A DNA stretch of 18,478 nt from a virus (IMGVR_UViG_2802429220_000018:1-18478), one strand, 5' to 3'. Positions 389 through 18,478 are shown, counted from the first letter of the stretch. The notes: generated from the sequence alone by a model not told the origin. Numbers and translations: made by a program.

Positions 389-461
389 CAGTTTGCATCA
401 TCTGTGATTAAATACCCTGGCCCTCAGGGCTGTCGTATCTGGTTAATACACAGGTGGGATC

Positions 462-647: not shown

Positions 648-1314
648 ATATGAAGGCCGTATTGTCGGCTATGGTTCAAGGGAACTGCGCGTTGAAACCA
701 TATCCTGCTGGCTGGCCCGCACAATCATTCAGACAAAGCACTATTCCCGCCGTTTTGTGAATAACTCCTACCTGCATCTGGGGGTATTCAGCGGACGTGA
801 TCTGGTTGGCGTTCTCCAGTGGGGATATGCCCTTAATCCCAACTCAGGGCGTCGGGTCGTGCCAGGAACGGATAACCGGGGCTATATGGAACTGAACCGC
901 ATGTGGTTACACGACGACATGCCCCGCAACTCTGAATCACGGGCCATCAGCTACGCACTGAAAACCATCAGGTTACTGTATCCGTCAGTGGAGTGGGTTC
1001 AGTCCTTTGCAGACGAACGCTGCGGACGTGCAGGTGTTGTGTATCAGGCGTCGAATTTTGATTTTATTGGTAGCCACGAAAGCACGTTCTACGAACTGGA
1101 CGGCGAGTGGTATCACGAGATAACGATGAACGCGATTAAGCGTGGAGGACAACGAGGCGAGTATTTACGGGCTAATAAGGAGCGGGCGGTGGTACACAAA
1201 TTTAATCAGTATCGCTACATCAGATTCCTGAACAAGCGCGCAAGGAAGCGATTAAATACTAAGCTATTCAGGATTCAGCCATACCCAAAAACACGCCAGA
1301 TTAGTATCAAATAA
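598..1314 (+). CDS. mom: Mom-like DNA modification protein (Mu Mom family, acyltransferase-like adenine-modifying enzyme); start uncertain (GTG 598 preferred, TTG 556 is the longest ORF)
   Basis: The ORF overlaps the com 3' end in another frame, the Mu com-mom arrangement. The conserved core ...[24 protein letters not shown]...[26 protein letters not shown]... resembles Mu Mom as I recall it. GTG 598 has GGAG 7 nt upstream, and both lie in a potential stem (tcccac 581-586 / gtggga 598-603) that would sequester the start site. TAA at 1312-1314. Confidence 0.7.
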
Positions 1315-1326
1315 TTTTTCGTTGTG

Positions 1327-1375
1327 CCGTTTTGGGTGGTATCAAAAAAAATCCCAAACGGTATCAAATAATTTT
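1327..1375 (+). terminator. Imperfect hairpin (ccgttttggg ... cccaaacgg, 16-nt A-rich loop) followed by a T-rich tract, directly after the mom stop; possible terminator or junction structure
   Basis: Read directly: 1327-1336 pairs with 1353-1361 with one bulge, then tatcaaataatttt. Weak as an intrinsic terminator because of the long loop and short T run. Confidence 0.3.
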
Positions 1376-1386
1376 GCGCGCTTTAC

Positions 1387-1506
1387 CCGGCACTGTCAGA
1401 TTTGATCACCAGTATGGTGGCCAGTGGCTATGACTACCGGCGCGACGATGATGCGGGCCTGTGGAGTTCAGCCGATCTGACTTATGTCATTACCTATGAA
1501 ATGTGA
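1387..1506 (+). pseudogene. U: 3' remnant (about 40 codons) of lambda tail terminator gene U; the 5' two-thirds is absent
   Basis: Frame ending at TGA 1504-1506 reads ...[39 protein letters not shown], matching the C-terminus of lambda gpU (131 aa) as I recall it. Upstream in frame there is a stop at 1369-1371 and no lambda-like sequence. The remnant sits immediately before V as in lambda. Confidence 0.6.
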
Positions 1507-1513
1507 GGACGCT

Positions 1514-2254
1514 ATGCCTGTACCAAATCCAACAATGCCGGTGAAAGGTGCCGGGACCACACTGTGGGTTTATAAGGGGAACGGTGACCCTTATGCGAAC
1601 CCGCTTTCAGACGTTGACTGGTCGCGTCTGGCTAAAGTTAAAGACCTGACGCCCGGCGAACTGACCGCTGAGTCCTATGACGACAGTTATCTCGATGATG
1701 AAGATGCGGACTGGACCGCGACCGGACAGGGGCAGAAGTCAGCCGGAGATACCAGCTTCACGCTGGCGTGGATGCCCGGAGAGCAGGGGCAGCAGGCGCT
1801 GCTGGCGTGGTTTAATGAAGGTGATACCCGTGCCTATAAAATCCGCTTCCCGAACGGCACGGTCGATGTGTTCCGTGGCTGGGTCAGCAGTATCGGTAAG
1901 GCGGTGACGGCGAAGGAAGTGATTACCCGCACGGTGAAGGTCACCAATGTGGGACGCCCGTCGATGGCAGAAGATCGCAGCACGGTGACGGCGGCCACCG
2001 GCATGACGGTAACGCCAGCCAGTGCTTCCGTAGTGAAAGGGCAGAGCACCACGCTGACCGTGGCATTCCAGCCGGAAGGCGCAACCGACAAGAGCTTCCG
2101 TGCGGTGTCTGCGGATAAAACAAAAGCCACCGTGTCGGTCAGTGGTATGACCATCACCGTGAACGGCGTTGCTGCAGGCAAGGTCAACATTCCGGTCGTA
2201 TCCGGTAATGGTGAGTTTGCTGCGGTTGCAGAAATCACCGTCACCGCCAGTTAA
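1514..2254 (+). CDS. V: Major tail tube protein gpV (246 aa) with C-terminal Ig-like domain
   Basis: ATG 1514 with GAGGA 4-5 nt upstream (the track's 1484 start is an upstream in-frame extension). The sequence [22 protein letters not shown]...[16 protein letters not shown] is essentially lambda V as I recall it; length 741 bp equals lambda V. Confidence 0.95.
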
Positions 2255-2269
2255 TCCGGAGAGTCAGCG

Positions 2270-2692
2270 ATGTTCCTGAAAACCGAATCATTTGAACATA
2301 ACGGCGTGACCGTCACGCTTTCTGAACTGTCAGCCCTACAGCGTATTGAGCATCTCGCCCTGATGAAACGGCAGGCAGAACAGGCGGAGTCAGACAGCAA
2401 CCGGAAGTTTACTGTGGAAGACGCCATCAGAACCGGCGCTTTTGTGGTGGCGATGTCCCTGTGGCATAACCATCCGAAGAAGACGCAGATGCCGTCCATG
2501 AATGAAGCCGTTAAACAGATTGAGCAGGAAGTGCTTACCACCTGGCCTACAGAGGCAATTTCTCATGCTGAAAACGTGGTGTACCGGCTGTCCGGAATGT
2601 ATGAGTTTGTGGTGAATGATGCCCCTGACCAGACAGAGGACGCCGGGCCTGCAGAGCCTGTTTCTGCGGGAAAGTGTTCGACGGTGAGCTGA
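2270..2692 (+). CDS. G: Tail assembly chaperone gpG (140 aa)
   Basis: ATG 2270 with GGAGAG upstream. MFLKTESFEHNGVTVTLSELSALQRIEHLALMKRQAEQ... matches lambda G; ends TGA 2690-2692 shortly after the slippery site. Confidence 0.93.
   Translation: MFLKTESFEHNGVTVTLSELSALQRIEHLALMKRQAEQAESDSNRKFTVEDAIRTGAFVVAMSLWHNHPKKTQMPSMNEAVKQIEQEVLTTWPTEAISHAENVVYRLSGMYEFVVNDAPDQTEDAGPAEPVSAGKCSTVS
2668..2674 (+). promoter_or_regulatory. Programmed -1 ribosomal frameshift site G GGA AAG joining G to T (G-T fusion chaperone)
   Basis: Heptamer GGGAAAG at 2668-2674 is in the G zero frame (gcG GGA AAG); the -1 frame continues open into the T reading frame through 3108. This is the conserved lambda G/GT recoding site. 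Confidence 0.85.
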
Positions 2693-3108
2693 GTTTTGCC
2701 CTGAAACTGGCGCGAGAGATGGGGCGACCTGACTGGCGCGCCATGCTTGCCGGGATGTCATCCACGGAGTATGCCGACTGGCACCGCTTTTACAGTACCC
2801 ATTATTTTCATGATGTTCTGCTGGATATGCACTTTTCCGGGCTGACGTACACTGTGCTCAGCCTGTTTTTCAGCGATCCGGATATGCATCCGCTGGATTT
2901 CAGTTTGCTGAACCGGCGTGAGGATGACGAAGAGCCTGAAGATGATGTGCTGATGCAGAAAGCGGCAGGGCTTACCGGAGGCGTCCGCTTTGACCCGGAC
3001 GGAAATGAAGTTATCCCCGCTTCCCCGGATATGGCGGGCATGACGGAGGATGACGTAATGCTGATGACAGTATCAGAAGGGATCGCAGGAGGAGTCCGGT
3101 ATGGCTGA
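2674..3108 (+). CDS. T: gpT portion of the G-T tail assembly fusion protein; not independently initiated, expressed by -1 frameshift from G
   Basis: -1 frame relative to G, open 2674-3108, product ...LSFALKLAREMGRPDWRAMLAGMSSTEYADWHRFYSTHYFHDVLLDMHF... matching lambda T. The 'M' at 2674 in the track is a GTG and not a real start. Confidence 0.85.
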   Translation: MFDGELSFALKLAREMGRPDWRAMLAGMSSTEYADWHRFYSTHYFHDVLLDMHFSGLTYTVLSLFFSDPDMHPLDFSLLNRREDDEEPEDDVLMQKAAGLTGGVRFDPDGNEVIPASPDMAGMTEDDVMLMTVSEGIAGGVRYG

Positions 3109-5662
3109 ACCGGTAGGCGATCTGGTCGTTGATTTAAGTCTGGATGCGGCCAGATTTGACGAGCAGATGGCCAGAGTCAGGCGTCATTTTTCCGGTACGG
3201 AAAGTGATGCGAAAAAAACAGCGGCAGTCGTTGAACAGTCGCTGAGCCGACAGGCGCTGGCTGCACAGAAAGCGGGGATTTCCGTCGGGCAGTATAAAGC
3301 CGCCATGCGTATGCTGCCTGCACAGTTCACCGACGTGGCCACGCAGCTTGCAGGCGGGCAAAGCCCGTGGCTGATCCTGCTGCAACAGGGTGGTCAGGTT
3401 AAGGACTCCTTCGGCGGGATGATCCCCATGTTCCGGGGGCTTGCCGGTGCGATCACCCTGCCGATGGTCGGGGCCACCTCGCTGGCGGTGGCGACCGGTG
3501 CGCTGGCGTATGCCTGGTATCAGGGTAACTCAACCCTGTCCGATTTCAACAAAACGCTGGTCCTTTCCGGTAATCAGGCGGGACTGACGGCAGATCGTAT
3601 GCTGGTCCTGTCCAGAGCCGGGCAGGCTGCAGGGCTGACGTTTAACCAGACCAGCGAGTCACTCAGTGCACTGGTTAAGGCGGGGGTAAGCGGTGAGGCT
3701 CAGATTGCGTCCATCAGCCAGAGTGTGGCGCGTTTCTCCTCTGCATCCGGTGTGGAGGTGGACAAGGTCGCTGAAGCCTTCGGGAAGCTGACCACTGACC
3801 CGACGTCGGGGCTGACGGCGATGGCGCGCCAGTTCCATAACGTGACGGCGGAGCAGATTGCGTATGTTGCTCAGTTGCAGCGTTCCGGCGATGAAGCCGG
3901 GGCATTGCAGGCGGCGAACGAGGCCGCAACGAAAGGGTTTGATGACCAGACCCGACGCTTGAAAGAGAACATGGGCACGCTGGAAACCTGGGCAGACAGG
4001 ACAGCACGGGCATTCAAATCCATGTGGGATGCGGTGCTGGATATTGGTCGTCCTGATACCGCTCAGGAGATGCTGATTAAGGCAGAGGCTGCGTTTAAGA
4101 AAGCGGACGACATCTGGAATCTGCGCAAGGATGATTATTTTGTTAACGATGAAGCGCGGGCGCGTTACTGGGATGATCGTGAAAAGGCCCGTCTTGCGCT
4201 TGAAGCCGCCCGAAAGAAGGCTGAACAGCAGAGTCAACAGGACAAAAATGCGCAGCAGCAGAGCGATACCGAAGCGTCACGGCTGAAATATACCGAAGAG
4301 GCGCAGAAGGCTTACGAACGGCTGCAGACGCCGCTGGAGAAATATACCGCCCGTCAGGAAGAACTGAACAAGGCACTGAAAGACGGGAAAATCCTGCAGG
4401 CAGATTACAACACGCTGATGGCGGCGGCGAAAAAGGATTATGAAGCGACGCTGAAAAAGCCGAAACAGTCCGGCGTGAAGGTGTCTGCGGGCGATCGTCA
4501 GGAAGACAGTGCTCATGCTGCCCTGCTGACGCTTCAGGCAGAACTCCGGACACTGGAGAAGCATGCCGGAGCGAATGAGAAAATCAGCCAGCAGCGCCGG
4601 GATTTGTGGAAGGCAGAAAGTCAGTTCGCGGTACTGGAGGAGGCGGCACAACGTCGCCAGCTGTCCGCACAGGAGAAATCCCTGCTGGCGCATAAAGACG
4701 AGACGCTGGAGTACAAACGCCAGCTGGCTGCACTTGGCGATAAGGTCACGTATCAGGAGCACCTGAATGCGCTGGCGCAGCAGGCGGATAAATTCGCACA
4801 GCAACAACGGGCAAAACGGGCAGCCATTGATGCGAAAAACCGGGGGCTGACTGACCGGCAGGCAGCGCGGGACGCCACGGAACAGCGCCTGAAGGAACAG
4901 TATGGCGATAATCCGCTGGCGCTGAATAGCGTCATGTCAGAGCAGAAAAAGACCTGGGCGGCTGAAGACCAGCTTCGTGGGAGCTGGATGGCAGGCCTCA
5001 GGTCAGGCTGGAGTGAGTGGGAAGAGAGCGCCACGGACAGTATGTCGCAGGTTAAAAGTGCAGCCACGCAGACCTTTGATGGTATTGCACAGAATATGGC
5101 GGCGATGCTGACCGGCAGTGAACAGAACTGGCGCAGCTTCACCCGTTCCGTGCTGTCCATGATGACAGAAATTCTGCTTAAGCAGGCAATGGTGGGGATT
5201 GTCGGGAGTATCGGCAGCGCCATTGGCGGTGCTGCCAGTGGTGGCGCATCAGCGTCAGGCGGTACAGCCATTCAGGCAGCTGCGGCGAAACTCCATTTTG
5301 CGACCGGAGGATTTACGGGAACCGGCGGCAAATATGAGCCAGCGGGGATTGTTCACCGTGGTGAATTTGTCTTCACCAAGGAGGCAACCAGCCGGATTGG
5401 CGTGGGGAATCTTTACCGGCTGATGCGCGGCTATGCCACCGGCGGTTATGTCGGTACACCGGGCAGCATGGCGGACAGTCGGTCGCAGGCGTCCGGGACG
5501 TTTGAGCAGAATAACCATGTGGTGATTAACAACGACGGCACGAACGGTCAGATAGGGCCACAGGCGCTGAAGGCTGTTTATGACGTAGCCCGTAAGGCGG
5601 CAATGGATGTTGTGACCGGGCAGATGCGTGATGGTGGTCTGTTCTCCGGAGGTGGACGATGA
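3101..5662 (+). CDS. H: Tail tape measure protein gpH (853 aa)
   Basis: ATG 3101 overlapping the end of T. MAEPVGDLVVDLSLDAARFDEQMARVRRHF..., length 853 aa, coiled-coil-rich middle and glycine-rich C-terminus, as in lambda H. Confidence 0.95.
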   Translation: MAEPVGDLVVDLSLDAARFDEQMARVRRHFSGTESDAKKTAAVVEQSLSRQALAAQKAGISVGQYKAAMRMLPAQFTDVATQLAGGQSPWLILLQQGGQVKDSFGGMIPMFRGLAGAITLPMVGATSLAVATGALAYAWYQGNSTLSDFNKTLVLSGNQAGLTADRMLVLSRAGQAAGLTFNQTSESLSALVKAGVSGEAQIASISQSVARFSSASGVEVDKVAEAFGKLTTDPTSGLTAMARQFHNVTAEQIAYVAQLQRSGDEAGALQAANEAATKGFDDQTRRLKENMGTLETWADRTARAFKSMWDAVLDIGRPDTAQEMLIKAEAAFKKADDIWNLRKDDYFVNDEARARYWDDREKARLALEAARKKAEQQSQQDKNAQQQSDTEASRLKYTEEAQKAYERLQTPLEKYTARQEELNKALKDGKILQADYNTLMAAAKKDYEATLKKPKQSGVKVSAGDRQEDSAHAALLTLQAELRTLEKHAGANEKISQQRRDLWKAESQFAVLEEAAQRRQLSAQEKSLLAHKDETLEYKRQLAALGDKVTYQEHLNALAQQADKFAQQQRAKRAAIDAKNRGLTDRQAARDATEQRLKEQYGDNPLALNSVMSEQKKTWAAEDQLRGSWMAGLRSGWSEWEESATDSMSQVKSAATQTFDGIAQNMAAMLTGSEQNWRSFTRSVLSMMTEILLKQAMVGIVGSIGSAIGGAASGGASASGGTAIQAAAAKLHFATGGFTGTGGKYEPAGIVHRGEFVFTKEATSRIGVGNLYRLMRGYATGGYVGTPGSMADSRSQASGTFEQNNHVVINNDGTNGQIGPQALKAVYDVARKAAMDVVTGQMRDGGLFSGGGR

Positions 5663-5988
5663 AAACCTTCCGCTGGAAAGTGAAACCCGGTATGGATGTG
5701 GCTTCGGCCCCTTCTGTAAGAAAGGTGCGCTTTGGTGATGGCTATTCCCAGCGAGCGCCTGCCGGGCTGAATGCCAACCTGAAAACGTACAGCGTGACGC
5801 TTTCTGTCCCCCGTGAGGAGGCCACGGTACTGGAGTCGTTTCTGGAAGAGCACGGGGGCTGGAAAGCCTTTCTGTGGACGCCGCCTTATGAGTGGCGGCA
5901 GATAAAGGTGACCTGCGCAAAATGGTCGTCGCGGGTCAGTATGCTGCGTGTTGAGTTCAGCGCAGAGTTTGAACAGGTGGTGAACTGA
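5659..5988 (+). CDS. M: Tail tip assembly protein gpM (109 aa)
   Basis: ATG 5659 overlaps the H stop (ATGA). MKTFRWKVKPGMDVASAPSVRKVRFGDGYSQRA... matches lambda M. Confidence 0.93.
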   Translation: MKTFRWKVKPGMDVASAPSVRKVRFGDGYSQRAPAGLNANLKTYSVTLSVPREEATVLESFLEEHGGWKAFLWTPPYEWRQIKVTCAKWSSRVSMLRVEFSAEFEQVVN

Positions 5989-6686
5989 TGCAGGATATCC
6001 GGCAGGAAACACTGAATGAATGCACCCGTGCGGAGCAGTCGGCCAGCGTGGTGCTCTGGGAAATCGACCTGACAGAGGTCGGTGGAGAACGTTATTTTTT
6101 CTGTAATGAGCAGAACGAAAAAGGTGAGCCGGTCACCTGGCAGGGGCGACAGTATCAGCCGTATCCCATTCAGGGGAGTGGTTTTGAACTGAATGGCAAA
6201 GGCACCAGTACGCGCCCCACGCTGACGGTTTCTAACCTGTACGGTATGGTCACCGGGATGGCGGAAGATCTGCAGAGTCTGGTCGGCGGAACGGTGGTCC
6301 GGCGTAAGGTTTACGCCCGTTTTCTGGATGCGGTGAACTTCGTCAACGGAAACAGTGACGCCGATCCGGAGCAGGAGGTGATCAGCCGTTGGCGCATTGA
6401 GCAGTGCAGCGAACTGAGCGCGGTGAGTGCCTCTTTTGTACTGTCCACGCCGACGGAAACGGACGGCGCTGTTTTTCCGGGACGTATCATGCTGGCCAAC
6501 ACCTGCACCTGGACCTATCGCGGCGATGAGTGCGGTTATCACGGTCCGGCGGTCGCGGATGAATATGACCAGCCAACGTCCGATATCACGAAGGATAAAT
6601 GCAGCAAATGCCTGAGCGGTTGTAAGTTCCGCAATAACGTCGGCAACTTTGGCGGCTTCCTTTCCATTAACAAACTTTCGCAGTAA
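5988..6686 (+). CDS. L: Tail tip protein gpL (232 aa)
   Basis: ATG 5988 overlaps the M stop (TGATG). MQDIRQETLNECTRAEQSASVVLWEIDLTEVGGERYFFCNE... matches lambda L, including the C-terminal Cys cluster. Confidence 0.93.
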   Translation: MQDIRQETLNECTRAEQSASVVLWEIDLTEVGGERYFFCNEQNEKGEPVTWQGRQYQPYPIQGSGFELNGKGTSTRPTLTVSNLYGMVTGMAEDLQSLVGGTVVRRKVYARFLDAVNFVNGNSDADPEQEVISRWRIEQCSELSAVSASFVLSTPTETDGAVFPGRIMLANTCTWTYRGDECGYHGPAVADEYDQPTSDITKDKCSKCLSGCKFRNNVGNFGGFLSINKLSQ

Positions 6687-6691
6687 ATCCC

Positions 6692-7435
6692 ATGACACAG
6701 GCAGAATCAGCGATTCTGGCGCACGCCCGGCGATGTGCGCCAGCGGAGTCGTGCGGCTTCGTGGTAAGCACGCCGGAGGGGGAAAGATATTTCCCCTGCG
6801 TGAATATCTCCGGTGAGCCGGAGGCGTATTTCCGTATGTCGCCGGAAGACTGGCTGCAGGCAGAAATGCAGGGTGAGATTGTGGCGCTGGTCCACAGCCA
6901 CCCCGGTGGTCTGCCCTGGCTGAGTGAGGCCGACCGGCGGCTGCAGGTGCAGAGTGATTTGCCGTGGTGGCTGGTCTGCCGGGGGACGATTCATAAGTTC
7001 CGCTGTGTGCCGCATCTCACCGGGCGGCGCTTTGAGCACGGGGTGACGGACTGTTACACGCTGTTCCGGGATGCTTATCATCTGGCGGGGATTGAGATGC
7101 CGGATTTTCATCGCGAGGATGACTGGTGGCGTCACGGTCAGAATCTCTATCTGGATAATCTGGAGGCCACAGGGCTGTATCAGGTGCCGTTGTCATCAGC
7201 ACAACCGGGCGATGTGCTGCTGTGCTGTTTTGGTTCATCGGTGCCGAATCATGCCGCCATTTACTGTGGTGATGGCGAGCTGCTGCACCATATTCCTGAA
7301 CAACTGAGCAAACGAGAGAGGTATACCGACAAATGGCAGCGACGCACACACTCCCTCTGGCGTCACCGGGCATGGCACGCATCTGCCTTTACGGGGATTT
7401 GCAACGATTTGGCCGCCGCATCGATCTTCGTGTGA
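6692..7435 (+). CDS. K: Tail tip assembly protein gpK (247 aa; JAB/MPN plus NlpC/P60-like)
   Basis: ATG 6692. MTQAESAILAHARRCAPAESCGFVVSTPEGERYF...HSHPGG... matches lambda K; the 3' end overlaps the start of I in another frame, as in lambda. Confidence 0.9.
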   Translation: MTQAESAILAHARRCAPAESCGFVVSTPEGERYFPCVNISGEPEAYFRMSPEDWLQAEMQGEIVALVHSHPGGLPWLSEADRRLQVQSDLPWWLVCRGTIHKFRCVPHLTGRRFEHGVTDCYTLFRDAYHLAGIEMPDFHREDDWWRHGQNLYLDNLEATGLYQVPLSSAQPGDVLLCCFGSSVPNHAAIYCGDGELLHHIPEQLSKRERYTDKWQRRTHSLWRHRAWHASAFTGICNDLAAASIFV

Positions 7436-8004
7436 AAACGGGGGCTGAAGCTATCCGGGCGCTGGCCACACAGCTCCCGGCGTTTCGTCAGAAACTGAGC
7501 GACGGCTGGTATCAGGTACGGATTGCCGGGCGGGATGTCAGCACGTCCGGATTAACGGCGCAGTTACATGAGACTCTGCCTGATGGCGCTGTGATTCATA
7601 TTGTTCCCAGAGTCGCCGGGGCCAAGTCAGGTGGTGTATTCCAGATTGTCCTGGGAGCTGCCGCCATTGCCGGATCATTCTTTACTGCCGGAGCCACCCT
7701 TGCAGCATGGGGGGCAGCCATTGGGGCCGGTGGTATGACCGGCATCCTGTTTTCTCTCGGTGCCAGTATGGTGCTCGGTGGTGTGGCGCAGATGCTGGCA
7801 CCGAAAGCCAGAACTCCCCGTACACAGACAACGGATAACGGCAAACAGAACACCTATTTTTCCTCACTGGATAACATGGTTGCTCAGGGCAATGTTTTGC
7901 CTGTTCTGTACGGTGAAATGCGTGTGGGGTCGCGGGTGGTTTCTCAGGAGATCAGCACGGCAGACGAAGGGGACGGTGGTCAGGTTGTGGTGATTGGTCG
8001 CTGA
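7333..8004 (+). CDS. I: Tail tip assembly protein gpI (223 aa)
   Basis: ATG 7333 inside the K 3' end. MAATHTLPLASPGMARICLYGDLQRFGRRIDLRVKTGAEAIRALATQ... matches lambda I; ubiquitin-like N-terminus and Gly/Ala-rich hydrophobic segment. Confidence 0.9.
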   Translation: MAATHTLPLASPGMARICLYGDLQRFGRRIDLRVKTGAEAIRALATQLPAFRQKLSDGWYQVRIAGRDVSTSGLTAQLHETLPDGAVIHIVPRVAGAKSGGVFQIVLGAAAIAGSFFTAGATLAAWGAAIGAGGMTGILFSLGASMVLGGVAQMLAPKARTPRTQTTDNGKQNTYFSSLDNMVAQGNVLPVLYGEMRVGSRVVSQEISTADEGDGGQVVVIGR

Positions 8005-8064
8005 TGCAAAATGTTTTATGTGAAACCGCCTCCGGGCGGTTTTGTCGTTTATGGAGCATGACGA

Positions 8065-11000
8065 ATGGGTAAAGGCAGCAGTAAGGGGCATACCCCGCGC
8101 GAAGCGAAGGATAACCTGAAATCCACGCAGCTGCTGAGTGTGATCGATGCCATCAGCGAAGGGCCGATTGAAGGTCCGGTGGATGGATTAAAAAGCGTGC
8201 TGCTGAACAGTACACCGGTGCTGGACAGTGAGGGGAATACCAACATCTCCGGTGTCACGGTGGTGTTCCGGGCAGGTGAGCAGGAGCAGACACCGCCGGA
8301 GGGATTTGAATCCTCCGGTTCCGAGACGGTGCTGGGTACGGAAGTGAAATACGACACGCCGATCACCCGGACCATCACGTCTGCAAACATCGACCGTCTG
8401 CGCTTTACCTTCGGTGTGCGGGCACTGGTGGAAACCACCTCAAAGGGTGACCGGAATCCGTCGGAAGTCCGCCTGCTGGTTCAGATACAACGTAACGGTG
8501 GCTGGGTGACAGAAAAAGACATCACCATTAAGGGCAAAACCACGTCGCAGTATCTGGCCTCGGTGGTGGTGGATAACCTGCCGCCGCGACCGTTCAATAT
8601 CCGGATGCGCAGGATGACACCGGACAGCACCACAGACCAGCTGCAGAACAAAACGCTCTGGTCGTCATACACCGAAATCATCGATGTGAAACAGTGCTAC
8701 CCGAACACGGCACTGGTCGGCGTGCAGGTGGATTCGGAGCAGTTCGGCAGCCAGCAGGTGAGCCGTAATTATCATCTTCGCGGGCGCATTCTGCAGGTGC
8801 CGTCGAACTATAACCCGCAGACGCGGCAATACAGCGGTATCTGGGACGGGACGTTTAAACCGGCATACAGCAACAACATGGCCTGGTGTCTGTGGGATAT
8901 GCTGACCCATCCGCGCTACGGCATGGGGAAGCGTCTCGGTGCGGCGGATGTGGACAAATGGGCGCTGTATGTCATCGGCCAGAATTGCGACCAGTCGGTG
9001 CCGGATGGCTTTGGTGGCACGGAGCCGCGCATCACCTGTAACGCTTACCTGACCACACAGCGCAAGGCGTGGGATGTGCTCAGTGATTTCTGCTCGGCGA
9101 TGCGCTGTATGCCGGTATGGAACGGGCAGACGCTGACGTTCGTGCAGGACCGACAGTCGGATAAGGTGTGGACCTATAACCGCAGTAATGTGGTGATGCC
9201 GGATGATGGCGCGCCGTTCCGCTACAGCTTCAGCGCCCTGAAGGACCGCCATAATGCCGTTGAGGTGAACTGGATTGACCCGAACAACGGCTGGGAGACG
9301 GCGACAGAGCTTGTTGAAGATACGCAGGCCATTGCCCGTTACGGTCGTAATGTCACGAAGATGGATGCCTTTGGTTGTACCAGTCGGGGGCAGGCACACC
9401 GAGCCGGGCTGTGGCTGATTAAAACGGAACTGCTGGAAACGCAGACCGTGGATTTCAGCGTGGGCGCAGAAGGGCTTCGCCATGTGCCGGGCGATGTTAT
9501 TGAAATCTGCGATGATGACTATGCCGGTATCAGCATCGGTGGTCGCGTGCTGGCGGTGAACAGCCAGACCCGGACGCTGACGCTCGACCGTGAAATCACG
9601 CTGCCATCCTCCGGCACCACGCTGATAAGCCTGGTTGACGGTGAGGGTAATCCGGTCAGCGTGGAGGTCCAGTCCGTCACCGACGGCGTGAAGGTGAAAG
9701 TGAGCCGTGTTCCTGACGGCGTTGCTGAATACAGCGTGTGGGGGCTGAAGTTGCCGACGTTGCGCCAGCGCCTGTTCCGCTGTGTGAGTATCCGTGAGAA
9801 CGACGACGGCACGTATGCCATCACTGCCGTGCAGCATGTGCCGGAAAAAGAGGCCATCGTGGATAACGGGGCGCACTTTGACGGCGACCAGAGCGGCACG
9901 GTGAATGGTGTCACGCCGCCAGCGGTGCAGCACCTGACCGCAGAAGTCACCGCAGACAGCGGGGAATACCAGGTGCTGGCGCGCTGGGACACGCCGAAGG
10001 TGGTGAAGGGCGTGAGCTTTATGCTTCGCCTGACCGTGGCAGCGGATGACGGCAGTGAGCGGCTGGTCAGCACGGCCCGGACGACGGAAACCACATACCG
10101 CTTCACGCAACTGGCTTTGGGAAACTACAGGCTGACAGTCCGGGCGGCAAATGCCTGGGGGCAGCAGGGCGATCCGGCGTCGGTATCGTTCCGGATTGCC
10201 GCACCGGCAGCACCGTCGCGGATTGAGCTGACGCCGGGCTATTTTCAGATAACCGCAACGCCGCATCTTGCCGTTTATGATCCGACGGTACAGTTTGAGT
10301 TCTGGTTCTCGGAAAAGCGGATTACCGATATCAGGCAGGTTGAAACCACAGCCCGCTATCTTGGCACGGGGCTGTACTGGATAGCCGCCAGTATCAATAT
10401 CAAACCGGGCCATGATTATTATTTTTACGTTCGCAGTGTGAACACCGTTGGCAAATCGGCATTTGTGGAGGCCGTCGGTCGGGCGAGCGATGATGCGGAA
10501 GGTTACCTGGATTTTTTCAAAGGCAAGATAACCGAATCCCATCTCGGCAAGGAGCTGCTGGAAAAAGTCGAGCTCACGGAGGATAACGCCAGCAGACTGG
10601 AGGAGTTTTCGAAAGAGTGGAAGGACGCCAACGATAAGTGGAATGCCATGTGGGCTGTCAAAATTGAGCAGACCAAAGACGGCAAACATTATGTCGCGGG
10701 TATTGGCCTCAGCATGGAGGACACGGAGGAAGGCAAACTGAGCCAGTTTCTGGTTGCCGCTAACCGTATCGCATTTATTGACCCGGCAAACGGGAATGAA
10801 ACGCCGATGTTTGTGGCGCAGGGCAATCAGATATTCATGAACGACGTGTTCCTGAAGCGCCTGACGGCCCCCACCATTACCAGCGGTGGCAGTCCTCCGG
10901 TATTTTCCCTGACATCAGACGGAAAGCTGACCGCTAAAAATGCGGATATCAGTGGCAGTGTGAATGCGAACGCCGGGACGCTCAACAATGTCACGGTAAA

Positions 11001-11478
11001 TGAAGACTGTACGATTAAGGGCATGCTGGAGGCGACTCAGGTCAGAGGTGACTTCGTTAAAGCTGTATCCAAATCATTCCCGAAACAGGCTGGTACGTGG
11101 GGTAACACGGAAACACCAAACGGGACGGTTACAGTCACCATCAGTGATGATCATAACTTTGACCGTCAAATCATTATTCCGCCCATTATCTTTAACGGAA
11201 TAGCGTATAGCGATCCGGGAAGTGGTAATAACCCGGGAGGTACAAGATACACGGGTTATGGTTTTGAAGTTCGCAAAAACGGTGTATTAATCGCATCCAG
11301 AGAAACTAAAGGGGCCATTCCCGGTAGCTACAGTGCGGTTATTGATATGCCGAGTGGCAGGGGAAGCGTCACTCTGGAGTTTAAGGTTTTCCATAAAGGC
11401 AATCAGTGGGCAGGTAATATCACCGACTGTACGGTGATTGTGACCAAAAAAGCCGCTTCCGGCATCAGTATTCGTTGA
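8065..11478 (+). CDS. J: Central tail fibre / tip attachment protein gpJ (1137 aa)
   Basis: ATG 8065 with GGAG upstream. [42 protein letters not shown]... is the lambda J N-terminus. Length 1137 aa against about 1132 for lambda J as I recall. Confidence 0.95.
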
Positions 11479-11547: not shown

Positions 11548-12147
11548 ATGCGTAAACTTTATGCCGCCATTTTTTCCGCAGCCATCTGTCTGGCCGTATC
11601 CGGTGCGCCTGCATGGGCATCTGAACATCAGTCCACGCTGAGCGCGGGGTATCTTCATGCCTCGACGAACGTTCCCGGCAGCGATGATCTGAACGGGATT
11701 AACGTGAAATACCGTTATGAGTTTACGGATACGCTGGGGATGGTGACGTCATTCAGCTATGCAGGAGACAAGAATCGCCAGCTTACCCGTTACAGCGATA
11801 CCCGCTGGCATGAAGATTCCGTGCGTAACCGCTGGTTCAGCGTGATGGCGGGGCCGTCTGTGCGCGTGAATGAATGGTTCAGCGCGTATGCGATGGCGGG
11901 TATGGCTTACAGCCGTGTTTCGACGTTCTCCGGGGATTATCTCCGCGTAACTGACAACAAGGGGAAAACGCACGATGTGCTGACCGGAAGTGATGGCGGT
12001 CGCCACAGCAACACGTCTCTGGCGTGGGGGGCTGGCGTGCAGTTTAACCCGACCGAATCCGTGGCCATTGACCTTGCTTATGAAGGTTCCGGCAGTGGCG
12101 ACTGGCGCACTGACGGTTTCATCGTGGGTGTCGGTTATAAATTCTGA
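11548..12147 (+). CDS. lom: Lom / Ail family outer-membrane beta-barrel protein (199 aa, signal peptide)
   Basis: ATG 11548 with GAGAGG about 6 nt upstream. N-terminal signal peptide [24 protein letters not shown]; C-terminus ...[26 protein letters not shown] is the Ail/Lom/PagC signature ending in an aromatic residue; same position as lambda lom. Confidence 0.9.
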
Positions 12148-12200: not shown

Positions 12201-12211
12201 GTGGAGTGGAT

Positions 12212-14587
12212 ATGGCAGCAGTAAAAATCTCAGGTGTGCTGAAAGATGGTGCGGGAAAACCAATACAGAACTGCACTATTCAACTGAAGGCAAAGCGTAA
12301 CAGCACCACGGTACTGGTGAACACGGTGGCCTCTGAAAATCCGGATGAAGCCGGGCGTTACAGCATGGACGTTGAGTATGGCCAGTACAGCGTTATCCTG
12401 CTGGTTGAAGGTTTTCCGCCTTCACATGCCGGAACCATTACCGTCTATGAAGGTTCCAGACCAGGTACGCTGAATGATTTTCTCGGTGCCATGACGGAAG
12501 ATGATGTCATGCCGGAGGCATTGCGTCGTTTTGAGGCAATGGTGGAAGAAGCGGCACACAACGCTGAAGCCGCCTCTCAGAGCGCAGCGGCGGCAAAGAA
12601 ATCCGAAGCTGCTGCGGCATCATCGAAGAACGCGGCGAAAAGCTCAGAAACGAATGCAGCTAACAGCGCACAGGCGGCAGCGGCCTCACAGACTGCATCG
12701 GCAAACTCCGCGACAGCAGCCCAAAAATCAGAAACCAACGCGAAAAATAGCGAAACAGCCGCAAAGACGAGCGAAACCAACGCAAAGTCCAGCCAGACGT
12801 CAGCGAAAACAAGCGAAACGAATGCCAAAACCAGTGAAACTGCGGCGAAAAGCAGTCAGGCTGCAGCAGCCGAAAGCGAGAGTGCTGCAGCCGGTTCTGC
12901 GACTTCAGCAGCTGGATCAGCAACTGCTGCGGCTAACAGCCAGAAAGCAGCGAAGACGAGCGAAACTAACGCAAAGTCCAGCCAGACGGCAGCGAAGACC
13001 AGCGAAACGAATGCCAAAGCCAGCGAAACTGCGGCGAAAAACAGTCAGGATGCAGCGGCCCAAAGCGAGAGTGCCGCAGCTGGTTCTGCAAGTGCGGCGG
13101 CTTCTTCTGCCACTGCATCAGCCAACAGTCAAAAAGCTGCAAAAACCAGTGAAACCAACGCAAAGGCGAGCGAGACTGCGGCGGCTAACTCGGCGAAAGC
13201 ATCCGCTGCAAGCCAGACGGCTGCAAAAGCAAGTGAAGACGCAGCCAGAGAGTATGCAAGCCAGGCTGCGGAGCCGTATAAACAAGTTTTGCAGCCGCTT
13301 CCCGATGTGTGGATACCGTTTAACGATTCACTGGATATGATTACGGGCTTTTCGCCGTCATATAAAAAGATTGTTATTGGTGATGATGAAATAACGATGC
13401 CTGGCGATAAGGTTGTAAAGTTTAAACGCGCATCGAAAGCAACCTATATTAATAAATCTGGTGTGCTGACAGAGGCTGCCATTGACGAGCCACGATTTGA
13501 ACGTGATGGCCTGCTTATTGAGGGGCAAAGAACAAACTACATGCTCAATTCGGAAAACCCTGCCAGTTGGGGGCGATCGTCAAATATGGATGTTCCCGAA
13601 ACCGGGAAGGATAGTTTTGGTTTTACCTATGGAAAGTTTGTCTGTAACGATTCTCTGATTGGGCAAACCTCAGCCATTAATATGGCATCAATTGCTGCAA
13701 CAAAGTCAGTTGATGTCTCAGGCGATAATAAATACGTGACAACCTCATGTCGTTTTAAAACAGAACTGCAGGTAAGGTTGCGTATCCGGTTTGATAAATA
13801 TGACGGTAGCGCAACAACTTTTCTTGGTGATGCGTATATTGATACACAAACGCTTGAAATTAATATGACAGGCGGCGCTGCCTCAAGGATTACAGCGAGA
13901 GTCAGAAAGGACGAAGCTACCGGATGGATTTTTGCAGAGGCAACAATTCAGGCAATTGATGGGGAGTTAAAAATAGGTTCTCAGATACAGTATTCTCCTA
14001 AGCAGGGCGGGGCAACCGTATCTGGTGACTATATTTATCTGGCCACCCCACAAGTAGAAAATGGGCCTTGTGTATCATCTTTTATTATATCAGGAACGAC
14101 GGCGGCGACCCGCGCAAGCGATATAGTTACAGTTCCCATTAAGAATAATCTTTATAATCTTCCTTTTACGGTTCTTTGTGAGGTACATAAGAACTGGTAT
14201 AAAACGCCAAATGCAGCGCCGCGTGTTTTTGACACCGGCGGTCATCAAACCGGAGCGGCAATTATTCTTGGATTCGGTTCTTCAGCAGATTACGACGGAT
14301 TTCCTTATTGCGATATTGGAGGAGCTAACAGACGGGTAAACGAAAACGCATTGCTTGAAAAAATGGTTATGGGGATGCGTGTAAAGTCAGATCAGTCTAC
14401 GTGCTCAGTAAGTAACGGGCGTATATCCAGCCAAACAAAAACCACATGGTCCTATATTCAGAACACCGCAATTATCCGTATTGGAGGCCAAACTACAGCC
14501 GGGTTACGTCATTTATTTGGTCATGTCAGGAATTTCAGAATATGGCACAAGGCATTGACTGATGCTCAGGTGGGGGAGTCAATCTAA
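12212..14587 (+). CDS. stf: Side tail fibre protein (Stf-like, 791 aa from ATG 12212): lambda-like N-terminus, Ala/Ser/Thr/Lys-rich repeat shaft, non-lambda C-terminal domain
   Basis: ATG 12212 with GGAG about 6 nt upstream (the track start 12206 is a GTG two codons earlier). The N-terminus MAAVKISGVLKDGAGKPIQNCTIQLKAKRNSTT... matches lambda Stf as I recall it. The central region is built of KTSETNAKSSQTAAK-type repeats; the C-terminal approx 440 aa is not like lambda Stf, but I did not compare the C-terminus carefully. Confidence 0.85.
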   Translation: MAAVKISGVLKDGAGKPIQNCTIQLKAKRNSTTVLVNTVASENPDEAGRYSMDVEYGQYSVILLVEGFPPSHAGTITVYEGSRPGTLNDFLGAMTEDDVMPEALRRFEAMVEEAAHNAEAASQSAAAAKKSEAAAASSKNAAKSSETNAANSAQAAAASQTASANSATAAQKSETNAKNSETAAKTSETNAKSSQTSAKTSETNAKTSETAAKSSQAAAAESESAAAGSATSAAGSATAAANSQKAAKTSETNAKSSQTAAKTSETNAKASETAAKNSQDAAAQSESAAAGSASAAASSATASANSQKAAKTSETNAKASETAAANSAKASAASQTAAKASEDAAREYASQAAEPYKQVLQPLPDVWIPFNDSLDMITGFSPSYKKIVIGDDEITMPGDKVVKFKRASKATYINKSGVLTEAAIDEPRFERDGLLIEGQRTNYMLNSENPASWGRSSNMDVPETGKDSFGFTYGKFVCNDSLIGQTSAINMASIAATKSVDVSGDNKYVTTSCRFKTELQVRLRIRFDKYDGSATTFLGDAYIDTQTLEINMTGGAASRITARVRKDEATGWIFAEATIQAIDGELKIGSQIQYSPKQGGATVSGDYIYLATPQVENGPCVSSFIISGTTAATRASDIVTVPIKNNLYNLPFTVLCEVHKNWYKTPNAAPRVFDTGGHQTGAAIILGFGSSADYDGFPYCDIGGANRRVNENALLEKMVMGMRVKSDQSTCSVSNGRISSQTKTTWSYIQNTAIIRIGGQTTAGLRHLFGHVRNFRIWHKALTDAQVGESI
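12764..13250 (+). repeat. In-frame tandem repeat of a 189-bp unit (about 2.5 copies) inside stf, with more degenerate 21-bp sub-repeats extending upstream to about 12590
   Basis: Unit starts aagacgagcgaaaccaacgcaaagtccagccagacg at 12764 and 12953, with a diverged third copy at 13142; this gives two near-identical 63-aa protein blocks. Confidence 0.8.
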
Positions 14588-14868
14588 TGAAAGATTTAAC
14601 ACTCAAATTTGCCGACAGGGCCGACTTTTCGGCCTTTATGGAGAGTACTGGCTATTATGATGACGAGTCGATGCAGGATGATATTCTTATTGACGTGATA
14701 GGTAACGTGTACAAAGAAACCGGAGAACTGAATGAAGATGGCGAACCGGTATGTGTTAAGGAAGACGGATATTTTGTAAACGTGCGCATCATTAATGATG
14801 TGAAAACACCATCAATATTCGATGAATACGTGGTTGCTGTTGAGCATCAACTTCGTGGCTGGATGTGA
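14587..14868 (+). CDS. Hypothetical small acidic protein (93 aa), translationally coupled to stf; candidate fibre chaperone or adaptor
   Basis: ATG 14587 overlaps the stf stop (TAATG). D/E-rich, no hydrophobic segment. It occupies the position where lambda carries tfa but does not resemble lambda Tfa. Confidence 0.55.
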   Translation: MKDLTLKFADRADFSAFMESTGYYDDESMQDDILIDVIGNVYKETGELNEDGEPVCVKEDGYFVNVRIINDVKTPSIFDEYVVAVEHQLRGWM

Positions 14869-14877
14869 GGAAGAATA

Positions 14878-15918
14878 ATGGCTACATCGACAGTAATTCC
14901 TGATGACATCAAAACGCTAAAATCCGATGTTAGTAAACTAAAAAACGATCAAGGAAGCTACGCAACAAAATCATATGTAGACAGCAAAGATGAAACCGTT
15001 GGTGACTGGTCTGCTTCATGGTATCAGCAGGTATTGCCAACTAGCGGAGCTATATTTGGGAGAAAACTCCGCTCAACTCACAGGACGGCAGGTGTTGAGG
15101 ATGCGTATTGCGAACTATACCTCAAAAAATGGATAGACAGTCCAGGTAACGCAATGGCGCGCCTTAACCTGAACGATAACGGGACAAACATTTGCTGGGA
15201 CTTTACCAACCTTTATGGCGGTACGATGATTTTTCCCGGTGACAGCGGATACCTCAAAATGGGTGACTGCCTTATGTCATACAGCAAGCGTGGAAGTAAC
15301 GCGCTTATTAAATTTGATTACACCGACACATTACAGATCAAATATGCTAATCATGGGTCAACCATGACATTAAACACACAGGGAACCGCTCACGCTGGCG
15401 TAACAACTAGACTATGGGGTAATTCTAGCCGTCCGGTTGTTTATGAAGTTGGCGTAGATGAGGCTCTGTATATGTTCTACGCACAGAAAACTACCAGCAA
15501 TACCTACGAATTAACGGTTAACGGCGCGTGCAATGCAAGTGCATTTAATCAAGGCTCCGACCGGGATCTGAAAGACAATATTCAGGTGATCGATAATGCA
15601 ATCGACCGCATTCGTAAAATGAACGGCTATACATACACGCTTAAAGAAAACGGTATGCCTTACGCTGGTGTTATTGCACAAGAAACCCTGGAAGCCATCC
15701 CCGAAGCCGTAGGGTCTATGATGAAATATCCAGACGGCGGGAGTGGATTAGATGGAGAAGAAGGTGAACGGTATTACACTGTAGATTATTCTGGTGTTAC
15801 TGGCTTGCTTGTTCAGGTAGCCAGAGAGTCAGACGACAGGATAACAGCACTGGAAGAAGAAAACGCAGAATTAAGACAAAGATTATCTGCAATTGAGGCG
15901 GCGCTTGCGTCTAAATAA
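14878..15918 (+). CDS. Tail fibre / tailspike-like protein (346 aa) with C-terminal intramolecular chaperone autoproteolytic domain (Peptidase_S74 type, about residues 227-346)
   Basis: ATG 14878 with GAGGAAG upstream. The C-terminal motif SDRDLKDNIQVIDNAIDRIRKMNGYTYTLKE....GVIAQETLEAIPEAV fits the conserved SDxxxKxNI ... GxxYxxK ... GVIAQEV..P signature of the endosialidase / T5 L-shaped-fibre C-terminal chaperone, followed by a coiled-coil-like tail. Confidence 0.7.
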   Translation: MATSTVIPDDIKTLKSDVSKLKNDQGSYATKSYVDSKDETVGDWSASWYQQVLPTSGAIFGRKLRSTHRTAGVEDAYCELYLKKWIDSPGNAMARLNLNDNGTNICWDFTNLYGGTMIFPGDSGYLKMGDCLMSYSKRGSNALIKFDYTDTLQIKYANHGSTMTLNTQGTAHAGVTTRLWGNSSRPVVYEVGVDEALYMFYAQKTTSNTYELTVNGACNASAFNQGSDRDLKDNIQVIDNAIDRIRKMNGYTYTLKENGMPYAGVIAQETLEAIPEAVGSMMKYPDGGSGLDGEEGERYYTVDYSGVTGLLVQVARESDDRITALEEENAELRQRLSAIEAALASK

Positions 15919-15922
15919 TATT

Positions 15923-15946
15923 AAGGGGCCGAGCGCCCCGTTTTAT
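15923..15946 (+). terminator. Weak candidate terminator hairpin after the fibre-like gene
   Basis: ggggc-cgagc-gcccc stem-loop (15925-15939) followed by GTTTTATT; short stem and interrupted T tract. Confidence 0.35.
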
Positions 15947-15960
15947 TGGGTAGGATGAAA

Positions 15961-16254
15961 ATGGATATAACACCTTTCCTTCATGCTCTTTGTGCTGTGG
16001 CTGCGCAGCTACTGATTGGTCTTTTTACCGGGAACTGGGCTTACGGAGCGATAGCCGGTTGTACGTTCTTCATTGCGCGTGAACACACCCAGGCAGAATA
16101 TCGCTGGATTGAAATGTTCGGGCATGGCAAGCGTATGAATATGCCGTGGTGGGGCGGTTTTGATCCACGCGCGTGGGATGTGGCAAGCATGATGGATTTT
16201 GCTGTGCCGGTGGTGGCGTGTCTGCTGGTCTGGCGGTTAGTTAATCGTGGGTGA
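15961..16254 (+). CDS. Hypothetical small membrane protein (97 aa from ATG 15961; two predicted hydrophobic segments)
   Basis: ATG 15961 with AGGA 5 nt upstream (the track's 15946 start is a TTG; ATG 15955 is also possible). Hydrophobic stretches FLHALCAVAAQLLIGLFTG...AIAGCTFFIA and MMDFAVPVVACLLVWRLV. No family recognised. Confidence 0.5.
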   Translation: MDITPFLHALCAVAAQLLIGLFTGNWAYGAIAGCTFFIAREHTQAEYRWIEMFGHGKRMNMPWWGGFDPRAWDVASMMDFAVPVVACLLVWRLVNRG

Positions 16255-16735: not shown

Positions 16736-18478
16736 TCATAATTTGTTAATGGCAATTTTAACTGTTCTGTTTAGATCGTATATGGCTCCAAATTTAAAGC
16801 TTTCTTTATAGGAAAGGCAAAAAATATCAAGTTTTTGACTAAGATAAATAAGTTTGTTTTTTTCATTAGTGGCGAATTGTTTTATGTTGCTGATTTGATA
16901 GTTGCTACGCAAGAAAGAACTAAATTGCTCAATATCATTAACTGCCCAATTCTTTAAAACGCATTTTGTTACAAATGATACACCTAGTACTTCAAGCGGC
17001 TTATAATTTCCGAATGGATCTAAAGTGGTTAATTGGTTAGCATTGAATGATGCCCAGCCATTCAATTCTAATTGCAACTTAATAGTGTTGAGTTCACGCA
17101 TTTTGATCGTGCTTTCATAACGGTAAAATGAAATTGAGTACAGCAATTTGCTATCTTCAAAACCACTATTTAAGCTATTTTTTCTATCAAGTGAGTATAG
17201 CTCAAAGCATTCTGCAACTTCATTGTCAGTGAATCCGTTCAGAATCGAAGTGACAAACTTTAGAGTTATAATTGGTGATTTTGGTAGGTATTTATGTGTG
17301 GTTAAATACTCATAATTCTGAAACGCTTTTATCCATTCATAGAAATTACAGTCAATCTTACGGCAAATTAAGTCGACAAGTGTATTTGAAAGTTCCTTTT
17401 CATTTATCTCATGTAATTCTGGACGTGCTGATATTGCAATTTCTCTCATAGTAAGCCGTTTTGCTTCATAAAACAAAACATCCAATATGTCATTTAATGA
17501 AGCTTGTCCGCTATAATACCTTTTAATCTCAGGTTTTATTTTGTAATTATTCAATGCTAACCATAGCACTCTCTCACTATCACTTGATTTCTCGGTGTTT
17601 AATAAAAAAGTTGGATCTTTGTCCTTGAGAAGATCCTCAAGAGAGTGATTATGCAAAAATAATAAAATGAAGAAAGAGCATATTGAGTTTAAAAGAATTG
17701 TTGATGGTATTCGCCAAGAAAGATGAGGATATGATTTAACGTATTCATATAATGGCGTAACTGTGTCCAAAATACGCATCAAAATACGGATGTTAACTAT
17801 GTTGTTATTTTTTACTATATCCTCAAAGAGAATTTTATCTTCCTGTGGGAATTGGGAAAGCTTTCCATTTATTATATCTATATCCAATATTTCCTCTGGA
17901 TGCGGATTATAATGAAGTGTTTCTGCAATGAGTTTTTCCTTGTGTTCTATTTTTAAACCAGACTCAGTTGATGTATTGGTAATAATAATAAAGTCTAAAT
18001 TTGAGTTCATCTCGGACATATAAAGAGAATGGCAATATGTCAAAATTTCACTAACTAATGATTTTTCGGATATTCTCTCTATATCATCCAATATAAAAAT
18101 ACCATCCAGTTTTGATAAAATGTTTTCTCTAACACTTGCACCAATAGAATTAAACATGCTGTTAATAATATTGGCACTTGCAGGTGAGCCGCTGGCAATG
18201 CTACCTATCCCTGATAGACTTTCGAGCCCGGATTTAAATGTTTGTATATCTTGCAGGTAGTAACAATCTATAATTTTAGCTTTGAAATCTGATAAGGATT
18301 TAATACCTAGTAAAGAAATATAATAGAAAATGTTTTTATCATAGTACTTGGGGAATTTTTTTCTGATAAAGTGAGTCTTTCCTGTGCCCCAGCTCCCATC
18401 AAGCAAAATCAGACCATCTCTTTTTTGTGAAAGTAGATGTATTATTTTTATAATAAGATTGCTGTTAGAGTATTTCAT
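16736..18478 (-). CDS. KAP-family P-loop NTPase (580 aa); AT-rich, likely horizontally acquired cargo; start codon at the last window base
   Basis: Minus-strand ORF with ATG at 18476-18478 and TGA at 16736-16738. Walker A in the KAP form GSWGTGKT (residues 28-35, LLDGSWGTGKTHF); Walker B-like IFILDDIER (compare the KAP DDLDR motif). The DNA is strongly AT-rich compared with the tail genes. Confidence 0.7.
   Translation of the reverse strand: MKYSNSNLIIKIIHLLSQKRDGLILLDGSWGTGKTHFIRKKFPKYYDKNIFYYISLLGIKSLSDFKAKIIDCYYLQDIQTFKSGLESLSGIGSIASGSPASANIINSMFNSIGASVRENILSKLDGIFILDDIERISEKSLVSEILTYCHSLYMSEMNSNLDFIIITNTSTESGLKIEHKEKLIAETLHYNPHPEEILDIDIINGKLSQFPQEDKILFEDIVKNNNIVNIRILMRILDTVTPLYEYVKSYPHLSWRIPSTILLNSICSFFILLFLHNHSLEDLLKDKDPTFLLNTEKSSDSERVLWLALNNYKIKPEIKRYYSGQASLNDILDVLFYEAKRLTMREIAISARPELHEINEKELSNTLVDLICRKIDCNFYEWIKAFQNYEYLTTHKYLPKSPIITLKFVTSILNGFTDNEVAECFELYSLDRKNSLNSGFEDSKLLYSISFYRYESTIKMRELNTIKLQLELNGWASFNANQLTTLDPFGNYKPLEVLGVSFVTKCVLKNWAVNDIEQFSSFLRSNYQISNIKQFATNEKNKLIYLSQKLDIFCLSYKESFKFGAIYDLNRTVKIAINKL

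Follow-up and report, generated by a model that had tools for sequence, protein, structure and literature searches.

A small acidic gene translationally coupled to the side tail fibre gene of a lambda-like prophage very probably encodes an accessory protein of lectin-ended phage fibres

Accessory proteins of tail fibres determine if a fibre that has been engineered, or has recombined naturally, will fold and function. The locus considered here raises the question of what job is done by orf93, a small acidic protein whose gene begins on the stop codon of the side tail fibre gene stf. An earlier note on this DNA had placed the ORF there in place of tfa and had offered two readings of it, either an unrelated fibre chaperone or adaptor for the non-lambda C-terminal domain of Stf, or a decoration protein. 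The window, that is, the whole stretch of 18,478 nt that was analysed, represents the tail end of a lambda-like E. coli prophage, with the gene order Mom-family gene, V, G, T, H, M, L, K, I, J, lom, stf, orf93, orf346 and orf102; beyond orf102, a KAP NTPase gene regarded as a defence candidate lies on the opposite strand. The stf region shares 95% nucleotide identity with Nesevirus phage 2G7b, Tritos and HannyBb. The two genes preceding stf are located as follows:

8065-11478: J
11548-12147: lom

The small gene itself and the signals at its two ends are:

14587..14868, + strand: orf93, a putative small acidic fibre-accessory protein of 93 aa, phrog_1361 (ORF listing and profile match)
14585..14589, + strand: TAATG overlap joining the stf stop and the orf93 start
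14572..14578, + strand: Shine-Dalgarno-like GGGGGAG within the 3' end of stf and 8 nt upstream of the orf93 start
14867..14873, + strand: GAGGAAG ribosome site lying across the stop codon of orf93

With the stf TAA at 14585-14587 and the orf93 ATG at 14587-14589, the two genes overlap by 1 nt in the sequence ...GGGGGAGTCAATCTAATGAAAG. Considering that stf and orf93 share this TAATG, translation of the two proteins is predicted to be coupled. Promoter-like and terminator-like sites were sought between stf, orf93 and orf346, and none was found; the orf93 stop lies 9 nt ahead of the ATG of orf346. The protein contains 12 D and 9 E (21/93 residues, 22.6%) and 8 K+R, with a pI of 4.1, and the description of a 93-residue, D/E-rich ORF starting on the stf stop is thereby confirmed in both coordinates and composition. 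Structure prediction yields an alpha/beta domain at aa 1-81 (pLDDT 84) and a flexible, low-confidence C-terminal tail at aa 82-93 that carries the near-invariant residues R90 and W92. In the family as a whole, a PxRxW motif at the C-terminus is kept with or without a distal fibre. Neither a signal peptide nor a DNA-binding motif nor a promoter of its own was found for orf93.

Evidence from several directions establishes that orf93 is a real gene, far beyond a chance ORF. The phrog_1361 profile covers the whole protein (E 4.5e-45; residues 1-93, profile positions 1-92 of 92). A database search yields 227 matching proteins, every one named hypothetical, and the family comprises 51 representatives at the 50%-identity level among 1.84 billion proteins, reaching down to 26-30% identity with length preserved. 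In addition, its dN/dS is ~0.37, and a megablast search of 5,426 complete E. coli genomes finds this allele in 988. Homologs are found in lambdoid phages (2G7b, phage 21, ev243, ev207 and 2E9), Drexlerviridae (Bas06 and tuinn), Nonagvirus (JenP1 and ESCO3), Dhillonvirus (KarlBarth), T5-like phages (Bas32 and Bas34) and the rV5-like phage nimi, as well as in P2-like prophages and unassigned metagenomic contigs. The hosts of the small gene thus include myovirus, siphovirus and temperate lineages together with virulent phages that have compact genomes. A distinctive partner domain and an unusually broad spread across phage morphotypes characterize the family.

Searches of Pfam, NCBIfam, PADLOC and PDB, using both the single sequence and a profile, returned no significant relative of orf93. 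For orf93 and 22 family members, Pfam gave no family at E<=1, Caudo_TAP (PF02413) included, and PADLOC assigned orf93 to 0 families. The best PDB match, telomerase p19 (E 0.01), was judged spurious, and no significant structural similarity was detected to the MecA C-domain, MESD or type III secretion system (T3SS) chaperones. Natural domain fusions were also sought, and the two long matches obtained (P0157 and P0170) proved to be low-complexity repeat proteins. A match to a regulator or another unrelated family, which the earlier note had named as the outcome that would speak against its proposal, was therefore not encountered in Pfam, NCBIfam, PADLOC and PDB. The family is catalogued as phrog_1361, VOG7707 and FIG00639828 'hypothetical protein'; these entries give no function and record neither the link to a fibre domain nor the link to a plug motif described below. 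In the literature searched, no description of the family's function was found, including in two BASEL papers dealing with homologous loci, and the protein is not characterized in the BASEL papers, the DT57C structure paper, the Eligo stf-chimera paper or a paper on small proteins near gpJ. The same searches, which were not aimed specifically at proteomics, gave no virion proteomics of an orf93 homolog.

The partner of orf93 is best understood from the architecture of the fibre gene upstream, whose relevant segments are:

12206..14587, + strand: stf, proximal side tail fibre of 793 aa, matching phrog_1419 over its full length
13514..14116, + strand: GTA_spike_fiber beta-sandwich domain, Stf aa 437-637 (NCBIfam NF048003)
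14474..14584, + strand: conserved Stf C-terminal end, IRIGGQTTAGLRHLFGHVRNFRIWHKALTDAQVGESI, whose motif marks every fibre preceding the small gene

Stf begins with an N-terminal anchor (PF08400, aa 5-134), continues as a shaft of Ala/Ser/Thr-rich repeats at about aa 115-345, and ends in a non-lambda C-terminal region spanning aa ~347-793. Within this region, NF048003 scores 52.1 bits against a curated cut-off of 36, and a sequence match to the RcGTA head spike fibre (PDB 6tb9) is obtained at E 4.5e-7. The GTA_spike_fiber domain is presumably the variable, glycan-binding part of Stf. The AlphaFold 2 model of the C-terminal region is confident only at aa 445-622 (pLDDT 74-95), and its fold matches, to the Pa193 and E217 fibre chains, are weak (TM about 0.3), the confident part being small. 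Relatives give weak Laminin_G_3 matches, and the Stf end reads IRIGGQ..RHLFGHVRNFRIWHKALTDAQ. In its C-terminal region, Stf shares 63% identity with Gp22, the proximal fibre of the T5-like phage Bas32, in which the homologous, protruding domain has been called 'galectin-like' (Humolli et al. 2025, PMC11990801). Neither Caudo_TAP nor Peptidase_S74 was detected in Stf itself by Pfam and NCBIfam scans.

The association between this type of fibre end and the small gene is remarkably regular. The fibre C-terminal motif RHLFGH[IV]RN[FL]RIWHKALTD was present in 13/13 diverse loci and in SelmaRatti, in each case directly before the small gene. Conversely, the small gene lies directly 3' of a motif-ended fibre gene in every lineage examined, covering at least eight phage lineages and identities down to 26%; the comparison included lambdoid phages, Drexlerviridae, Nonagvirus, Dhillonvirus, T5-like and rV5-like phages, P2-like prophages and metagenomic contigs. 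Among 97 loci, the small gene was directly downstream of a fibre gene in all 97, with stop and start overlapping by 1 or 4 nt in 93 (47 TAATG, 43 ATGA and 2 GTGA junctions being among the types recorded). The fibre domain was detected in 218 phage records, a distribution similar to that of the small gene (181 by tblastn); SelmaRatti/Bas34 is tblastn-negative, yet the small gene is present there according to an HMM search (E 9e-24). On the strength of these records and of the case recovered by HMM only, the pairing of fibre domain and small gene appears close to obligate. The proposed tie between the ORF and the non-lambda Stf C-terminal domain is consequently upheld: the gene is directly 3' of it and usually translationally coupled to it in every lineage examined.

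This pairing operates at the level of the domain type. One small-protein allele (at least 80% identity, E. coli prophages) occurs alongside 11 different Stf tip types and 3 types of downstream gene, and co-variation of the small protein with the Stf tip is rejected on this ground. The small gene thus travels with the fibre domain type and not with tip alleles, a behaviour that fits binding to a conserved core or end.

The relation to tfa requires a more restricted statement than the one originally made. No Tfa/Caudo_TAP is detectable in the window, since Pfam scans of the neighbouring ORFs gave none and tblastn with three Tfa sequences gave a best E of 0.05. The claim that Tfa is absent is valid within these 18.5 kb but does not extend to the relatives 2G7b and ev243, in which remnants of a decayed tfa lie about 1.2 kb further 3'. 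P2-like prophages, moreover, contain both the small gene and a Caudo_TAP gene, the latter located behind the downstream distal fibre, which it presumably serves. This coexistence indicates that the small gene goes with its own fibre domain and is not a Tfa substitute; 'in place of tfa' therefore describes a position only, and is rejected as a statement on function.

Downstream of orf93, the locus continues with a further fibre gene and a small membrane protein gene:

14878..15918, + strand: orf346, distal fibre of 346 aa, phrog_4563 'tail fiber'
14878-14958, + strand: N-terminal 'plug' of orf346, MATSTVIPDDIKTLK, aa 1-27
15556-15711, + strand: Peptidase_S74 (PF13884) C-terminal intramolecular chaperone of orf346, aa 227-278 (E 8e-14)
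15925..15939, + strand: GC-rich hairpin 3' of orf346
15946..16254, + strand: orf102, small membrane protein, phrog_1443, with the probable true start ATG at 15961

Because orf346 corresponds to a distal fibre with its own chaperone, the locus is predicted to encode a two-segment fibre. This second, distal fibre is missing from the earlier note. It agrees with the prediction for the homologous Bas32 module, for which an AlphaFold-Multimer model has been published in which the distal Gp24 attaches to the proximal Gp22 (PMC11990801). Distal fibre genes whose products begin with M[AV]TxTxIPxDITxLK follow the small gene at 9-12 nt in six lineages (lambdoid, Drexlerviridae, Nonagvirus, Dhillonvirus, T5-like and P2-like), and the gap between the small gene and the next gene is 9 nt in 85/97 loci. 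The distal bodies vary, including S74-type proteins of 225-351 aa, the T-shaped Bas32 Gp24 of 574 aa, and a gp37-like protein of 303 aa in P2-like prophages (L097), where it is followed by its own Caudo_TAP gene. In lambdoid phages, orf102 comes after the small gene with or without a distal fibre gene; it is a possible member of the fibre module.

A connector would be expected to occur together with both fibre segments, and this pattern did not hold throughout. A distal fibre gene is present in the six lineages above and absent from six others (phage 21, ev243, nimi, L084, L088 and L090) that keep the small gene intact with all of its conserved residues. The small proteins of these distal-less lineages are 23-62% identical to one another, and the small gene of the phage 21 group has a dN/dS of 0.27-0.41. 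Retention of the gene without a distal fibre suggests that its core function concerns the proximal fibre itself.

Taken together, the sequence comparisons indicate that the orf93 product is very probably an accessory protein of the lectin-ended fibre, and a fibre-linked function in general can be assigned with high confidence. Within this assignment, the favoured reading, given about an even chance, is that orf93 acts as an assembly or capping partner of the conserved lectin-type end of the proximal fibre. It is favoured because the small gene is coupled to the proximal fibre gene, because the proximal fibre lacks a chaperone of its own and the distal fibres bring theirs (S74, or Caudo_TAP in L097), and because the gene persists where no distal fibre exists. 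In such a scheme, orf93 would be made in step with Stf through stop/start-coupled translation and would bind a conserved part of the GTA-spike-fibre/LamG-like C-terminal end in preference to the variable receptor-binding surface, with the PxRxW tail as the putative contact element. The protein would be needed for folding, trimerizing or stabilizing the Stf end, and may remain on the fibre as a cap. The earlier proposal, a chaperone or adaptor of an unrelated kind acting on the non-lambda Stf end, is thus supported in outline by synteny and by the lack of relationship to Tfa; nothing supports the decoration-protein option.

The main rival explanation, possible but less probable, is that orf93 is a joint adaptor, a permanent virion piece at the end of the proximal fibre that forms a socket for the M[AV]TxTxIPxDITxLK plug of exchangeable distal fibres, loosely comparable to the way in which gp35/gp36 connect the T4 half-fibres. 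The recurrence of plug-bearing distal fibres at a fixed 9-12 nt spacing in six lineages agrees with this explanation, as does a pattern scan of viral contigs in which 79/79 occurrences of the plug motif had a small-gene homolog directly upstream, in a set made up largely of E. coli prophages related to each other. Podovirus (Gordonclarkvirinae) homologs of Bas32 Gp24 match only from residue 49 onward, which implies that the plug is specific to this module, and the small gene and the ~27 codons that open the following gene stay constant, flanked on either side by a variable receptor-binding region. The fact that distal fibres come with their own chaperones also fits a joint. However, the small gene is intact in the six divergent lineages without a distal fibre, its PxRxW motif is retained regardless of whether such a fibre is present, and the published Bas32 model joins Gp24 to Gp22 with no role for the small Gp23 (PMC11990801). 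A broader version of this idea, in which orf93 would serve siphoviruses and myoviruses, temperate and virulent alike, as the universal 'socket' of plug-and-play fibres, is likewise tentative. So is its corollary that a capped, lectin-bearing proximal fibre might accept any distal fibre equipped with a 15-27-residue plug. An assembly partner and a joint adaptor are not mutually exclusive, since a retained cap could be a docking platform too.

Two further alternatives appear improbable. The strict tie of the small gene to a lectin-type domain, the small and acidic nature of its product, and the published precedent of chaperone 'caps' on fibre tips cited in PMC11990801 would suit a cap that sits only transiently on new fibres or virions, masks their lectin domain against unproductive binding to host glycans or debris and is released later. 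Such a mask would be expected to act at the variable, presumably ligand-binding part, with which orf93 does not co-vary, one allele serving 11 tip types, and this role is considered very improbable. The location of orf93 in the variable right end of a lambdoid late operon, near a membrane protein and the KAP NTPase defence candidate, could instead point to a cargo gene (a moron, or a gene for superinfection exclusion, defence or regulation) hitch-hiking at a recombination hot spot. Its position and coupling are nevertheless conserved in compact virulent genomes and across myovirus, siphovirus and temperate lineages down to 26% identity, and the lack of any PADLOC, Pfam or NCBIfam match, signal peptide, DNA-binding motif or own promoter likewise makes a cargo gene very unlikely.

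The assignment of orf93 as a probable fibre accessory protein would have several practical consequences. Its allele alone is carried by about 18% of complete E. coli genomes, though annotated 'hypothetical', and the family occurs in model and therapy-candidate phages, including BASEL Bas06, Bas32 and Bas34, Drexlerviridae, T5-like and rV5-like phages. If the protein is required for lectin-ended fibres or for distal docking, the small gene would have to accompany fibre transplants in host-range engineering, and fibre models built without the small protein, such as that of Bas32, would be incomplete. Should the tentative socket idea be true, receptor-binding tips (IMC-type, T-shaped and gp37/Tfa-type) might be swapped with the rest of the tail untouched. 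The conserved three-part junction also marks clear recombination and module boundaries of these two-segment fibres.

Several known systems offer points of comparison. In multi-segment fibres such as those of T4 (gp35/gp36) and the T5-like phage DT57C (LtfA/LtfB), a distal segment docks on a proximal one and gene order equals physical order, as would be the case here and as predicted for the proximal Gp22 and distal Gp24 of the homologous Bas32 locus. However, gp35 and gp36 are much larger than orf93, no homology was detected, and orf93 persists without a distal fibre; in DT57C, gene numbering indicates no small gene between ltfA and ltfB (PMC10713586). Peptidase_S74 domains (T5 pb1, endosialidases and orf346) supply a C-terminal folding aid for trimeric fibres, and one is present in the very operon of orf93. 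Such a chaperone belongs to the fibre polypeptide itself, from which it is cleaved, whereas orf93 is encoded separately and gives no S74 match. A parallel in arrangement is provided by Tfa, gpG and gpU (Caudo_TAP, PF02413) of lambda, P2 and Mu. Like orf93, these proteins are small and encoded directly 3' of the fibre gene that they serve or, for orf93, would serve; Tfa moves as a cassette with a fibre C-terminal domain, as orf93 does at the level of the domain type, and some Tfa proteins stay bound to the tip. The two differ in size (93 versus ~175-200 aa), share no sequence or profile similarity, and are linked to different partners, orf93 to a lectin-type beta-sandwich end with no tip co-variation and Tfa to a gp37-like tip. 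The role proposed here is the same as that of Tfa, gp38/gp57A and the intramolecular chaperones at other fibre tips, to all of which orf93 is unrelated. The family is thus best rated as a new one, distinct from those known, that does a known kind of job, that of a fibre accessory protein.

Directly 3' of the small ORF (orf93) lies a gene encoding a second, distal tail fibre (orf346), followed by one for a small membrane protein (orf102):

14878-15918 (+): orf346, distal tail fibre gene with a Peptidase_S74 intramolecular chaperone
15946-16254: orf102, small protein with two transmembrane segments (phrog_1443), also found at 5367-5660 of compared locus L002 and at 4289-4582 of the phage ev243 locus

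When orf346 is compared with the alternative alleles present in sister prophages (234 and 275 aa), only the first ~27 residues are held in common. The N-terminal motif of orf346, MATSTVIPDDIKTLK (the plug motif), is shared by the distal fibres of six phage lineages, which are otherwise unrelated. The phrog_1443 gene, whose true start in the window is probably the ATG at 15961, is located 3' of the small ORF in lambdoid phages, with or without a distal fibre gene. An insertion sequence with three transposase ORFs breaks stf in phage 4A7 (locus positions 417-3279) but leaves both the small ORF and the gene for the membrane protein intact.

Decayed fragments of tfa, the tail fibre assembly gene, are found ~1.2 kb downstream of the module (the Stf C-terminal region, the small ORF and, where present, the distal fibre) in phages 2G7b (locus positions 8174-8472) and ev243 (5500-5929). 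Their position suggests that the module took the place of the 3' portion of an stf gene of lambda type together with the 5' portion of tfa; within the window there is no tfa remnant of this kind. Several other genes and ORFs accompany the fibre genes:

556-1314 (+): Mom-family protein gene (PF25680, E 4e-76), TTG start
8665-10689 (-): 674-aa ORF antisense to J
12501-13340 (+): 279-aa alternative-frame ORF within the stf repeat region
16736-18478 (-): KAP-family P-loop NTPase gene, with a match (E 7e-16) to PDC-S49, a candidate defence system in PADLOC

The NTPase gene is incomplete, running off the window end, and its place is occupied in relatives by sitABCD or by a methyltransferase gene and tfa remnants. 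Immediately preceding V, the lambda-like major tail gene, the Mom-family gene occupies an unusual site for a DNA-modification moron. The 279-aa and 674-aa ORFs do not look like genes and seem instead to arise from repetitive or biased composition.

In the rV5-like phage nimi, the small protein (locus positions 5001-5333, 110 aa) shows homology confined to residues 1-71; its C-terminal tail differs and is without the PxRxW ending, and its gene is followed by a terminator-like hairpin, with no distal fibre there. Coliphage-type T5-like or rV5-like fibre modules are also contained in GenBank records labelled as Campylobacter or Listeria phages (MG065692, MG065676, MG065666, OR848352 and OR849447), which are probably mislabelled or contaminant assemblies.

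In the virulent Nonagvirus vB_EcoS_ESCO3 (locus positions 4001-6555), the Stf C-terminal region, small ORF and distal fibre show 98% nucleotide identity to those of the window prophage, which indicates that temperate and virulent phages exchanged the entire module very recently. In a P2-like prophage (locus positions 6001-10052), the lectin-type C-terminal domain is fused to a P2 H-type fibre N-terminus, and downstream come the small ORF, then a gp37-like distal fibre of 303 aa that bears the plug motif, and finally a Caudo_TAP chaperone; by this arrangement, the module functions on contractile-tailed phages as well.
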